From assembly GCF_048403405.1 (NCBI RefSeq), contig NZ_CP183129.1: 64,000 bases of DNA; one strand, given 5' to 3'. This stretch comes from Escherichia coli (GTDB lineage: Bacteria > Pseudomonadota > Gammaproteobacteria > Enterobacterales > Enterobacteriaceae). The position numbers are program-made. Positions 35,702-64,000 of this stretch are shown here, piece after piece (the stretch's first letter is position 1; each line of letters begins with the position of its first letter).

Positions 35702-38700
35702 TCACGATGGTGAATATTGTCTTCTTTCAGCGCACGCAGGGCATCTGTTAATACGGCGTAATTCAGAGACGGAATCATGATTTCGGACCTTCCTTAAACA
35801 CTTCAGCGGTTGGCTAATTTGAGGTTGATCCATTCATCAATTTCAGATTCGAGCCAGGCTACGCTGGCAGGGCCAACCTTTATTATTGAACGAGGAAAAG
35901 AGCCCCCTTTCATATACAGATAGATTTGCGAGCGTTTCAGACCGGTTTTTTCTTCGACCTGTTTCAGGCGTAATAACTGATGTGATGTCATGATTTTCTC
36001 CAGTGTAGAGTGGGGTTGGAGAAGATAAAAAAGCATAAGCGAAGGTGAAGAAGAAAGCACGTAAGCCCGTATTAAGAGTTTTTGAGTTCTTAATACGTAT
36101 TTCAGTATAATGGTGAGTTAAATCAATAAGGCACTGAAGTGGGAGAACCGCGTTCAAGTGCTGTTTTCAGTGTATCGCCGCTGAATTTGTCAGTAATACC
36201 TTCGGTAGATGCCCATTGTTCGAAAATGGATAAAAGCTTGTAAGGTTTTCCTAGTAATGGACTGATGACTTCATTATGTTTACATGAAAGCCAGAAAAGA
36301 CGAGATAAAGGGCTGGATATGCGTGTCGATGTTGGAGTGTGTTTAATATTTACATAGGCATTCATCAGCTTTTGTAGTTCAGTCAGGCGAATTACAAAAC
36401 AGGAATCTTGTGGTAATTTATAAATAGGGAAATATTCTTTGTCACTGGATTTATGAGTTTCATTCGATTAATGTTGTTATAAATCTCAGATTTTAGTTCT
36501 TCAGGTAATTACATTAGTTGTTGGCTAATTAGTTCTTTTCATGTTATTTTCTCAAACGCTTGAAATAGAGTTCTTGATAATAAAACTGAAATGCCATAAT
36601 TAATACATTGATTGCCTGTGATTGGTGGTGATATATTGATTGAGTGCGCCAGTAAGTGTTGAATTGTTACGAATTCATACCCGATCAGAGTGGTATCAAT
36701 GACCCATTTTTTTAGAATGAATATATTTATCTTGAGTGAGTGTGGTATAATTTATATGTTTAATGAAACAATGTGTATCAAGATAGCATAAACGATCTGT
36801 GAGAGAGTTTCCTATTTTTTTCAATTTAATTTTATTCTTAATTTTTGTGACTTTCCTTAATATAATTGTAGATTGAAAGTATATAGATAAATAAATGTTT
36901 CAAGATAGCGCATGGCGATAAACGTCGCTGTCGGTTAATTGTTTCTCTGTTTTTTTCTGGTTGGCTAGGTATACAGCTTCAGGTATGGTTAACCAATCGG
37001 ATTTATTTTTAATAATAGTATTTTTTGTTTTATTGTTAAACATAATTTTTCCTTATTTATATGAGTGCTAATATATTGATGGTTTTTTATAATTTATTCG
37101 TGTTTTGGTGTGAATATATGAATTGAATTGTCATATCTTTTATATGACCTATAGTCAGTCAAATAATACTTAAAACTAACTGTTAATATATAATTTCATT
37201 GTGGTCGTATAACTATAATAAATGATGTGGCAGGTTGCTTTTTATATCACCCCATGTTAAGAATTTATAGTTAAATGGATGGTGATATGTGATTATGGAT
37301 ATTTTATAGCTATCTAATATTGATTTGGTAATATATGAAAGATGAGCAGAGTAATGCTGTTCTATAAAATATAATTTATCAAATTGATCTCTCTTTATAT
37401 AAAAATCTAAATTCTTAATGATTTCTTCTGATAATCCAATGCCTCTTGATTTAATATAGGCTTCTTTTAATGTCCACATCTTATAGAAATTATGTTTTTT
37501 TTGAGTCTCGTCAAAATAAGATAGGTATTTTTTTTCTTTTTTTGAGAAATAATAATCTATAATGCTATTTATTTCTATATCACGGTTGAAATATTCAATA
37601 TCAATACCAACGGATGATGTATTTGAAATAGCGAGAGCAACACAATTATTTGAATGTGATAAATTGAAGTAAATGCTTTCCTTTGATTCGTTTAAAATAA
37701 ATGGTTTCCCGTACTCATTTTTTGAAAATCTTACATCTTCTGGTGAAATTTTTAAATAAAATGATAAAATATCGCGTAACATGACTCTTGATAGCAAAAA
37801 AATATTTCGTTGTTTTATAAAAGGGTAGTCGAATAACGATGAAATTTCATCGTTATTTAAGATGTGCATTCTGGATTTAGCTTTACTTAAACATGGTATC
37901 GTTTGTAGATTACCAATCCAGATATGCACCTCATTATCTATAAACAAGTTGCTATTACTCATTGCATTTGGCTATTAGCATAACGCTTTCTGTTGTAACC
38001 ATAAATGTGCATATAAGCCATTTTTTGCAAGTAACTCAGCATGTTTTCCTTGTTCTGCTATTTTTCCATTTTCCATTACGATAATGTTATCGGCATTTTT
38101 AATGCTATTTAATCGATGGGCAATCATAATGATTGTCTTATCTTTTGATAACAATGATAAAGCTTGTTGAATTAATACTTCTGATGAACAATCGATACTC
38201 GATGTTGCTTCGTCAATCAGTAAAATTGGTGCATTTTTTAATAAAGTTCTAGCAAGAGAAAGACGTTGACGTTCTCCACCTGAGAGTAACATACCACCGT
38301 AACCAATAGGAGTATCATAATTTTGTGGTTTTTGTATAATAAACTCATGTGCATTAGCTAATTTAGCTGCAGTTATTATTTCATCATCGTGAGCATCTGT
38401 TTTTCCCATTAAAATATTATCTTTAATTGTTCCTGAAAATAAAACGACATCTTGATAAACAGAAGATACATATGAACAGAGTTTATCGGAATTTATTTGG
38501 TTAATATTAATATCATCTAGCAATATTTCACCTTGGTTAACATCCCATAGACGAGAAATAAGCTGTAGTAAAGTGCTTTTCCCTGAGCCACTAGGGCCAA
38601 CAATAGCAGTAAAGCTTTTTTCAGGAAAACAGCAAGATATATTATCTAATGTTAATTGACTATTATAAGGATAAATAAAGCTTACATTGTTAAAATAGAT

Positions 38701-62700: not shown

Positions 62701-64000
62701 TCTCGGATTGCAGTCAGATTTAATGGACCATTTTACTTTAATGAGCAAAATAATTTAGAACAAGGGCATTATACTGTTGTTGATGCATCAATATCATGGC
62801 ACCCTACAAAGCAATATGAACTTAGTATCTATGCGAAAAATATTGGTGATGCTTTATATCGAACGTATGCATTTGGTAATAAAGCACAGCTAGGTAATCC
62901 GAGAGAGATTGGGGTTCAGGGAAGTATTAACTTTTAGGGTATAGTAAAATCCGCCTGCGCCAAAAAGCGGGTTTTTATTGTCAGCCTTAAACCACCACCT
63001 AAGCAGGTGATGATTGACCCTGTGAGGCTATAGCCTGAAGGAAACCCATGTTAAAAAACTACCTCTTACTCACCACAAGTAAAGAGGAAATAACATGGGT
63101 TTATACAGAAGTTCATCACATGTGTATTGACGTTGCAAATATCATCTAGTTTGGACTCCTAAATATCGTTATAATATATTGAAAGATAAAGTAGGAAAAG
63201 AGCTTTATAGAATAATTTATATTCTCTGCATTATGAAAGACTGTGAAGTATTGGTGCTAAATGTTCAGCCAGACCATGCTTATTTAGTTGTAATGATCCC
63301 ACCTAAACTATCAATATCAACACTAATGGGAGTCCTGAAAGGACGTAGTACGATAAGGTTATATAATCGATTTCCACATATACGTAAGAAACTTTGGGGT
63401 AATCATTTTTGGGCTAGGGGATATTTTGCTGATACGGTGGGGGTTAATGAAGTCATCATTAGGCGTTATGTAAGGCATCAGGATAAAGTTGATCAAGAGC
63501 TCGACCAACAAATGGAATTGTTGGGGGATTAATAAAGAATATAGCCCCCTTATAGGGGGCCCAATTTAAAACCACCTCTTTTAGAGGCGGTATTTTACAC
63601 CCGCCGTTTTCTTTTTTTTCGGAAAACTAATTTCCTATTGAGAGCGCTTGCTTTTCTGCGCACAGTGTGCCTGTGACTTTATTTTGTTAACTCAGGACAG
63701 AAAATGCGTATGAAAACTCTCCCGATATGTCTTGCCCTGACCTCACTGTTGTTGGGGGGCTGTGCAGACAAGCCAGCCCAGCCTACGGAAGCGGCGGCAG
63801 ACATCGCGATTCCGCTCAACGTCGGTTATGCTCAGCCGCTGCTCCCAGATATTTATCCGTCAGCCCCGGAAGTGGTGCGTTATGACCGTTACCGGCTGGT
63901 TGATATTTCGCCTTCACAGGCACAGCGTTACCCGCTGGAACAAATTGTTCATCTGCGTATTCCTGCTTCCGTCTCCCCGACAGTCGGGGATGCGCTACAT

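Follow-up and report, generated by a model that had tools for sequence, protein, structure and literature searches.

The nrp operon of an ICEPm1-type element in Escherichia coli and the predicted N-methylation of its yersiniabactin-like product

INTRODUCTION

Yersiniabactin is encoded by the high-pathogenicity island (HPI) found in Yersinia, Escherichia coli and Klebsiella, the locus of which (irp2, irp1, ybtU, ybtT, ybtE, ybtS, ybtA, ybtPQ, ybtX and fyuA) includes the synthetase proteins HMWP2 and HMWP1. In the pyochelin system (PchE/PchF, PchG), a thiazoline is reduced and its ring nitrogen is N-methylated by a methyltransferase embedded in PchF, while the piscibactin and photoxenobactin clusters have their own salicylate synthase and ligase (Irp9 and Irp5) and do without the last yersiniabactin ring. 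Here we analyze a yersiniabactin-like cluster found in a 64,000-nucleotide stretch of an E. coli chromosome (assembly GCF_048403405.1, contig NZ_CP183129.1), referred to below as the window, to which as a whole all positions refer. We identify the cluster as the nrp operon of an integrative and conjugative element (ICE) of the ICEPm1 type.

The nrp operon is reportedly PMI2597-2605, with the receptor gene PMI2596, on ICEPm1 of Proteus mirabilis HI4320, and is said to have been described by Gaisser and Hughes in 1997, Flannery in 2009 and Himpsl in 2010. As related in a 2024 review (PMC11026637), Himpsl et al. 2010 described nrp as lacking ybtS and ybtE, which serve salicylate synthesis and incorporation, as well as a YbtA-like regulator, and as having a methyltransferase-like protein, NrpY, and an in-operon phosphopantetheinyl transferase (PPTase), NrpG. 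According to the same review, the nrp product was predicted to contain no salicylate, P. mirabilis neither produces nor uses yersiniabactin, and activity in the chrome azurol S (CAS) assay was lost only in an nrp/pbt double mutant; a mutant in the nrp synthetase/receptor was outcompeted in bladder and kidney upon co-challenge. The missing starter genes, NrpY and NrpG are thus already published (2010). The original prediction for this stretch, a first reading of the sequence alone, had presented the starter unit as an open question, and this part still stands, the other points having been in print since 2010.

RESULTS

The cluster is the nrp operon on an ICEPm1-type element

Between positions 37213 and 62937, the map of open reading frames (ORFs) showed nine ORFs on the minus strand, running from 60776 down to 37213, and one divergent ORF on the plus strand. 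Their order is identical to that published under the name nrpXYRSUTABG (PMC5484520). Over the 15.3 kb available for comparison, the DNA was 99.94% identical to that of P. mirabilis ATCC 29906 and 99.89% identical to that of Providencia stuartii NCTC11800, and NrpR was 100% identical at the protein level in the Proteus/Providencia operon comparison. Positions 1 to 25000 of the window were covered completely, at 99.8% identity, by E. coli strain GN02323, in which an integrase marks the start of the element at tRNA-Phe; TraI, TraD, the TaaP adhesin and a type IV secretion module are encoded on it, and it extends into the window. The left part of the window harbors replication and partition genes of the SPI-7 type, and a two-component system and hlyCABD lie beyond the window. 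Taken together, these data identify the cluster as nrpXYRSUTABG with its divergent receptor gene, cargo of an ICEPm1-type element inserted at tRNA-Phe in the E. coli chromosome, and we hold this reading, along with the N-methylated yersiniabactin relative proposed below as its product, to be probable. The original prediction had already matched the layout to nrp on ICEPm1-type elements and judged the cluster not to be new, and both the 99.94% identity and the presence of an ICE at tRNA-Phe bear this out. The window copy shares with the ICEPm1 nrp of P. mirabilis its gene order, its tRNA-Phe ICE context and its published peculiarities, and differs in its host, which here is E. coli.

The 23.6-kb operon was present at about 100% identity in 13 of 5,426 complete E. 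coli genomes, mostly from human isolates, and a full-text literature search returned no paper reporting nrp or ICEPm1 in E. coli. Its G+C content is 35.5%, against 48% for the ICE backbone, and the module is bracketed by remnants of insertion sequences (IS3, IS110 and IS200/IS605) at 32000-36200 and 63179-63532. Low G+C content and flanking remnants indicate that nrp is a cargo module and suggest that it came in one piece from a low-G+C, Proteus-like genome.

Two further nrp copies showed peculiarities of their own. In P. stuartii NCTC11800, the receptor gene, nrpY, nrpR and nrpS are each split over two alignments of about 100% identity, reflecting either frameshifts or indels of a long-read assembly. 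In a Proteus assembly (L023), the PPTase encoded at 10001-10717 is only 58% identical to that encoded at 37213-37962 of the window, while the proteins from NrpS to NrpB are 98 to 100% identical, so that the last operon gene has been swapped. The end of this copy is not inside ICEPm1 but next to a small integrase island and to tusE-hspQ-mgsA-helD, which are core genes.

Genes were assigned from NCBIfam and Pfam profiles, scores being compared to the curated cutoff of each family, and from RefSeq names. The features are as follows, with ABC standing for ATP-binding cassette, MFS for major facilitator superfamily, NRPS for nonribosomal peptide synthetase, PKS for polyketide synthase, SAM for S-adenosylmethionine, A for adenylation, Cy for cyclization, MT for methyltransferase and ArCP and PCP for aryl and peptidyl carrier domains.

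60949-62937, plus strand: TonB-dependent siderophore receptor (PMI2596 homologue), divergent from the operon (TIGR01783)
60777-60948, strand not applicable: divergent promoter region of 172 bp, with a Fur-box-like site at 60885-60909
59463-60776, minus strand: nrpX, MFS transporter, YbtX homologue (RhtX/FptX family)
58694-59431, minus strand: nrpY, stand-alone class I SAM-dependent methyltransferase, predicted amine N-methyltransferase (SAM motif and fold)
52569-58673, minus strand: nrpR, HMWP2-like NRPS of 2034 amino acids, ArCP-Cy1-A(MT-like insert)-PCP1-Cy2-PCP2 (Pfam)
58467-58646, minus strand: N-terminal aryl-carrier-type domain of NrpR, amino acids 10-69, LGLDSIG (PDB sequence matches)
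55749-56990, minus strand: core of the NrpR adenylation domain, amino acids 562-975, L-cysteine predicted (TIGR01733, likeness to HMWP2)
43341-52556, minus strand: nrpS, HMWP1-like PKS/NRPS of 3071 amino acids, KS-AT-MT-KR-ACP-Cy3-MT-PCP3-TE (Pfam)
42253-43341, minus strand: nrpU, thiazolinyl imide reductase of the YbtU/PchG type (TIGR01761)
41480-42253, minus strand: nrpT, type II thioesterase of the YbtT type (44% identical to YbtT; GHSMG; RefSeq name "thioesterase II family protein")
39695-41461, minus strand: nrpA, ABC half-transporter of the YbtP/YbtQ type with permease and ATPase fused (30% identity to YbtP and likewise to YbtQ; MsbA/CydD-type families)
37975-39702, minus strand: nrpB, second ABC half-transporter, also a permease/ATPase fusion, YbtQ type (32% identical to YbtQ; ABC families)
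37213-37962, minus strand: nrpG, 4'-phosphopantetheinyl transferase of the Sfp/HetI type (profile matches and RefSeq name)

Within the run of nine ORFs, no gap exceeds 31 nucleotides, and nrpS/nrpU and nrpU/nrpT overlap by 1 base and nrpA/nrpB by 8, as expected of a single operon. NrpU is a full-length match to TIGR01761 (348.4 bits against a cutoff of 188.8, residues 4 to 340 covered) and is 43% identical to YbtU. The receptor scored 182 bits against TIGR01783, under the curated cutoff of 223.5, and is 27% identical to FyuA over its full length and 99.8% identical to the protein of P. mirabilis ATCC 29906. Although NrpX matched the RhtX/FptX family with an E value of 1.2e-42, it too stayed under the curated cutoff; it is 39% identical to YbtX over 411 amino acids. 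NrpG matched HetI (E=1.9e-36) and AcpT (E=2.5e-19), each under its curated cutoff. The coordinates and domain order given in the original prediction were correct, and the SAM methyltransferase and PPTase that it placed within the operon are nrpY and nrpG; the parts it listed were all found, but it had overlooked the YbtX-like MFS gene and the methyltransferase-like insert of the A domain.

Outside the operon, the ICE carries two adjacent genes for TonB-dependent receptors on the plus strand (26826-28919 and 28921-31299). The former product resembles the ZnuD "zinc piracy" receptor, scoring 572 bits against a curated cutoff of 950, and the latter does so more weakly; with these two receptors and the YbtX-like NrpX, the element may take part in the uptake of zinc in addition to that of iron. 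The ICE backbone also encodes, at about 15078-15659 on the minus strand, a four-helix-bundle protein of the ClbS/DfsB family, a broken second copy of which lies near 32.6 kb (RefSeq). ClbS is the self-protection protein of colibactin; the ORF at about 15078-15659 gave no NCBIfam match, and no colibactin genes are present here.

The assembly line follows that of yersiniabactin but has no starter genes

All proteins of an annotated ybt locus on a Klebsiella plasmid, taken as the reference, were compared with the Nrp set. Pfam placed in NrpR a carrier domain (amino acids 10-69), Cy (96-522), A (562-906), PCP (1394-1454), Cy (1480-1894) and PCP (1939-2002). The A domain is interrupted by a methyltransferase-like insert (about 1148-1268), which HMWP2 also has, and its C-terminal subdomain follows at 1331-1365. 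In NrpS, the order is KS, AT, MT, KR, ACP, Cy, MT, PCP and TE, so that the two proteins together reproduce the HMWP2/HMWP1 domain order. By BLASTP, NrpR is 41% identical to HMWP2 and colinear with it across 2046 columns, and NrpS is 50% identical to HMWP1 over KS-AT-MT and 37.5% identical over the remainder, again colinearly.

The catalytic motifs that we checked are intact. The DxxxxD motif was found in all three Cy domains (DMLIAD in Cy1, DNLFLD in Cy2 and DLLQFD in Cy3), SQTPQVW in Cy1, and the carrier serines in NrpR. Compared to HMWP1, NrpS has kept the KS cysteine and histidines, the AT motif GHSxG, both GxGxG methyltransferase motifs, the KR, the carrier serines and the TE motif GWSYG. 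The insert of the A domain reads G-A-R-S-G in NrpR and G-T-R-T-G in HMWP2, both departing alike from the canonical GxGxG; a Ralstonia locus considered as an N-methylated (micacocidin) comparator for this insert was dropped, the locus being a salicylate-type ybt-like cluster.

The A domain of NrpR scored 384 bits against TIGR01733, above the cutoff, and its core is 55% identical to that of HMWP2. Pocket residues were taken from conserved motifs in the alignment against HMWP2, motifs that we take to correspond to the A-domain pocket positions, and read D-L-Y-N-Y-S-M-I-W in NrpR and D-L-Y-N-M-S-M-I-W in HMWP2. A single difference in nine positions supports cysteine as the substrate, and we predict from sequence that the domain activates L-cysteine. 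The specificity check that the original prediction had proposed therefore returned a pocket of the HMWP2-like, cysteine type, the same at eight of nine residues though not identical.

What is missing from the assembly line is the starter pathway. In tblastn searches of all six frames of the window (E≤10), YbtS (salicylate synthase YbtS/Irp9) gave nothing credible (best E, 0.36), stand-alone YbtE/Irp5 matched only the in-line A domain of NrpR (23%), and the AraC-type regulator YbtA reached a best E of 1.6, upholding the earlier statement that the window encodes no homologue of the three. A ybtE/ybtS pair just outside the window had been named beforehand as the finding that would speak against that prediction; in the RefSeq annotation of the best-matching genome, the ~36 kb of the element that remain to the right and the ~10 kb on the left side of the window hold neither such a pair nor any other adenylating or chorismate-utilizing enzyme.

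The nrp and yersiniabactin loci thus share the HMWP2/HMWP1 architectures, including the A-domain insert, as well as a reductase, a type II thioesterase, an MFS protein, two ABC half-transporters and a TonB receptor. They differ in that nrp is without YbtS, YbtE and YbtA and has a stand-alone methyltransferase and an in-operon PPTase, and the identities between them are 27 to 50%. The original prediction had labeled the two ABC proteins exporters, a label that does not hold: they are homologues of YbtP and YbtQ (30 to 32% identity), which are ferric-siderophore importers with an exporter fold. Its view that the product is likely not yersiniabactin agrees with the account of Himpsl 2010 in the 2024 review (PMC11026637).

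NrpY is a predicted amine N-methyltransferase with relatives at ybt-type loci

NrpY has the class I SAM motif GxGTG (GSGTG) and belongs to a well-conserved homologue family. Its AlphaFold model (pLDDT, 88.7) has the overall fold of small-molecule amine N-methyltransferases, including their C-terminal beta-sheet lid, and the closest folds in the PDB are the amine N-methyltransferases TylM1, DesVI, KedS8, CalS10, CypM and CcbJ, with TM scores of 0.58 to 0.78 (0.77 to 0.78 for TylM1 and 0.75 for DesVI). The NrpY sequence itself found no match in a PDB sequence search. When the family profile was compared to the PDB, the top scores were partial matches to arginine N-methyltransferases, and the whole-length match was the sugar N-methyltransferase 5BSZ.

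A gene fusion links this enzyme family to the reductase. On two Streptomyces plasmids (L020, 10858-12792, and L021, 7687-9792), a thiazolinyl imide reductase carries an NrpY-like methyltransferase at its C terminus, the N-terminal part sharing 32% of its residues with NrpU and the C-terminal part, over its full length, 29% with NrpY. Each fusion gene adjoins a second, stand-alone NrpY-like gene (30 to 31% identical), in coelibactin-like clusters with a salicylate synthase. An amine N-methyltransferase fold, together with the reductase fusion, leads us to predict N-methylation of a thiazolidine, with NrpY acting on the ring nitrogen made by NrpU.

At the loci that we inspected, NrpY homologues lie beside ybt-type clusters in Klebsiella, Xanthomonas, Roseospira, Pollutimonas, Methylobacterium and a metagenome contig. 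In Roseospira, the order receptor-methyltransferase-NRPS-PKS is the same and the receptor is 53% identical to the nrp receptor, and in Xanthomonas hortorum and the metagenome contig, a YbtE-YbtS fusion protein is encoded next to the NrpY homologue; a Stutzerimonas contig with a homologue ends too early to show its neighbors. A methyltransferase of the NrpY type is thus a recurrent accessory of yersiniabactin-type clusters and not a peculiarity of nrp. The "extra" methyltransferase of the original prediction is indeed present, but it is not specific to nrp, since homologues adjoin ybt-type clusters that have YbtE and YbtS. Such co-occurrence in Klebsiella, Xanthomonas and the metagenome contig also led us to reject the idea that NrpY replaces the salicylate route.

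The Klebsiella case is an observation in its own right. In K. pneumoniae (run SRR19372450; L005, 10001-10756), a methyltransferase of the NrpY family, 43% identical to NrpY, is encoded 124 bp downstream of fyuA, in a ybt locus that is otherwise ordinary and 97 to 99% identical to the reference proteins. Megablast found no match to this homologue in complete E. coli genomes or PLSDB plasmids, indicating that it is a rare variant, and we know of no description of it.

The starter unit

By its sequence, the N-terminal carrier of NrpR (amino acids 10-69) is of the aryl-carrier type. Its best PDB sequence matches were the ArCP of HMWP2 (2N6Z/5TTB; E=2.6e-13) and then that of EntB (E=1.8e-3), and the carrier serine stands in the context LGLDSIG, compared to AGLDSIR in HMWP2. 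Identity to the HMWP2 ArCP is 33%. A protein search for the nearest relatives of the ArCP-Cy1 region gave only fragments of at most 42% identity and was uninformative. The ArCP serine motif is shared with HMWP2, and it recurs along with those of Cy1 in three other homologues and in a metagenomic relative with 57% overall identity (ArCP, 47%; Cy1, 65%). The carrier domain looks functional.

Other nrp copies allowed a look at the operon flanks. No loader gene was found in the recovered receptor-side flank of a copy with 84.5% nucleotide identity (L008), nor in the recovered PPTase-side flanks of a copy whose Nrp proteins are 93 to 96% identical (L022) and of the near-identical Proteus copy (L023). 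These loader-free flanks, each variant having been recovered at one end only, point to a lasting feature of the lineage, as opposed to truncation at capture, and make a loss of starter genes upon uptake of the operon by the ICE unlikely.

We then screened the E. coli carriers with a chimeric query made up of ybtE and 4 kb of nrp. Of the 13 chromosomes with nrp, 11, including that of GN02323, also carry ybtE, compared to a background of 41.8% among all complete genomes (P=0.002 by Fisher's test, without correction for phylogeny). The search for an aryl-AMP ligase proposed in the original prediction thus had a mixed outcome, with none annotated in the rest of the element and ybtE elsewhere on the chromosome in 11 of 13 carriers. 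With ybtE in these strains, trans-loading by YbtE, or by EntE, is possible in E. coli. Our tentative first choice for the starter is an acid, aryl or acyl, that an unlinked adenylating enzyme loads in trans, with YbtE and EntE as the E. coli candidates. A cysteine loaded by the in-line A domain is rather unlikely and a bypass of the first module improbable, and some other starter accounts for what is left.

Trans-loading could take a specific form in E. coli, in which the HPI would supply the missing functions, YbtS providing salicylate and YbtE loading it onto the NrpR ArCP. In that case, E. coli would make a salicylate-capped and perhaps N-methylated analogue of yersiniabactin, or there would be intermediates common to both lines, with EntE and 2,3-dihydroxybenzoate as a second candidate donor. 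An aryl-type carrier closest to the HMWP2 ArCP, the natural partner of YbtE, and the excess of ybtE among the carriers speak for such a supply, for which piscibactin offers a reported precedent in Irp5 accepting dihydroxybenzoate from another pathway (PMC12421891). However, the two ArCPs are only 33% identical, 2 of the 13 carriers are without ybtE, and the co-occurrence may reflect nothing more than island-collecting lineages of extraintestinal pathogenic E. coli. YbtE cannot be the whole answer in any case, because nrp aids iron chelation in P. mirabilis, which makes no yersiniabactin, as reported in the 2024 review (PMC11026637), so that a ybt-independent starter must exist. On balance, we regard supply by the HPI as possible but doubtful.

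Such a starter could come from the line itself if the in-line cysteine A domain also loaded the N-terminal carrier, the chain then beginning with cysteine and having no phenolate cap. In agreement with this, the element is otherwise autonomous, having its own PPTase, unlike the Yersinia island; the flanks recovered from other copies show no loader gene, and the cluster occurs in three genera besides E. coli. The A domain of HMWP2 moreover serves several carriers, including one in trans, but it is not known to load its own ArCP, and we know of no precedent in yersiniabactin-type lines for a Cy domain accepting a free aminoacyl donor. The NrpR carrier, in addition, has the aryl signature L-D-S, not G-G-D-S, and matches ArCPs best. 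Even with the salicylate-free product predicted by Himpsl 2010, as cited in PMC11026637, self-priming therefore seems unlikely to us. We give similarly low credence to its fuller version, in which nrp would make an uncapped yersiniabactin-like metallophore, with a first unit such as cysteine placed on the ArCP without a dedicated ligase and the thiazolidine nitrogen methylated by the stand-alone enzyme. Finally, the N-terminal carrier and Cy1 might be bypassed or vestigial, giving a truncated, starter-less product with two rings or, in the extreme, a decaying passenger that makes nothing in E. coli. The absence of loader genes, the low conservation of the ArCP, which is the least conserved functional domain compared to HMWP2 (33%), and the split nrpR annotated in 2 of the 13 E. 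coli copies (elppa4 and SCU-204) would fit. But the ArCP serine and the DxxxxD and SQTPQVW motifs of Cy1 are intact and kept in the 57%-identical relative, all nine ORFs are intact and tightly coupled, and 11 of the 13 E. coli copies, at about 100% identity, are annotated with an intact NRPS. As nrp mutants also have phenotypes in P. mirabilis, according to the literature (PMC11026637, PMC5484520), a bypass is quite improbable.

Proposed pathway

By homology with the characterized yersiniabactin synthetase, NrpG would phosphopantetheinylate the five carrier domains, and the single A domain of NrpR would activate L-cysteine and load PCP1, PCP2 and the PCP3 of NrpS. Cy1, Cy2 and Cy3 would form three thiazoline rings, the middle one being reduced to a thiazolidine by NrpU, and the PKS module would add malonate, which would be C-methylated and its ketone reduced. 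The second methyltransferase of NrpS would C-methylate the last ring, the TE would release the acid, and NrpT would edit mis-primed carriers. NrpY would N-methylate the thiazolidine nitrogen produced by NrpU, as in pyochelin, giving an N-methylated relative of yersiniabactin. The metal complex would be re-imported by the receptor, NrpA/NrpB and NrpX under Fur control.

Several points weigh against this scheme. Each biosynthetic step is proposed by analogy, at 37 to 55% identity, and the predicted site of NrpY action draws on a fold and a gene fusion. The C-methyltransferases PsmD and SgMT are also among the fold matches of NrpY, which could instead carry out C-, O- or S-methylation. The closest homologue of NrpY outside Proteus with a named organism, 58% identical and encoded in Vibrio aerogenes CECT 7868, has no NRPS neighbor and adjoins a glycyl-radical enzyme and its activase, showing that the family is not exclusive to siderophore clusters. 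The receptor and ABC proteins are only 27 to 32% identical to their Ybt counterparts, and the ligand may thus differ more than assumed. The Fur-box-like site consists of overlapping 13/19 and 14/19 matches to GATAATGATAATCATTATC at 60885-60909, which are weak alone; because matches of at least 14/19 are common, with 17 sites across the AT-rich window, this one does no more than fit the published regulation of nrp by iron and Fur (PMC11026637). Full-text searches, extended to the photoxenobactin and piscibactin literature, found no published product structure for nrp.

DISCUSSION

Among known systems, pyochelin offers the closest likeness for the chemistry predicted for NrpU and NrpY, namely, a reductase of the TIGR01761 family followed by ring N-methylation; it differs in having the methyltransferase inside PchF, no PKS module, no third ring and its own salicylate genes. 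The coelibactin-type clusters of Streptomyces resemble nrp in their NrpY-family methyltransferases, both stand-alone and fused, their paired ABC transporters and their thioesterase, but they are NRPS-only clusters of actinomycetes with a P450 and a salicylate synthase, and their products are, as far as we know, uncharacterized. Piscibactin and photoxenobactin (irp/pxb; Vibrionaceae and Xenorhabdus/Photorhabdus) are, like nrp, yersiniabactin-related PKS/NRPS metallophore lines on mobile elements, and their starter flexibility is documented (PMC12421891). The search with NrpU matched a Photobacterium reductase at 40% identity.

The present analysis leaves the classification of the cluster unchanged. 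What it adds is that nrp occurs in E. coli, where it overlaps with the yersiniabactin island, that a missing loader is a conserved feature, and that a specific, testable role is proposed for NrpY. The nrp locus, named in 1997, contributes to the fitness of P. mirabilis in urinary tract infection. That the lineage has no starter genes looks like a lasting trait and not an accident of operon capture. If an uncapped, self-primed line were to prove true, it would be a new mode of priming in a well-studied family and would explain how the operon moves between genera without starter genes. In E. coli, the pathway has arrived unchanged and mostly in strains already positive for ybtE, making cross-talk between the two lines testable, and the recurrent pairing of a stand-alone methyltransferase with thiazoline reductases yields a concrete structural prediction for the product, an N-methyl-thiazolidine.

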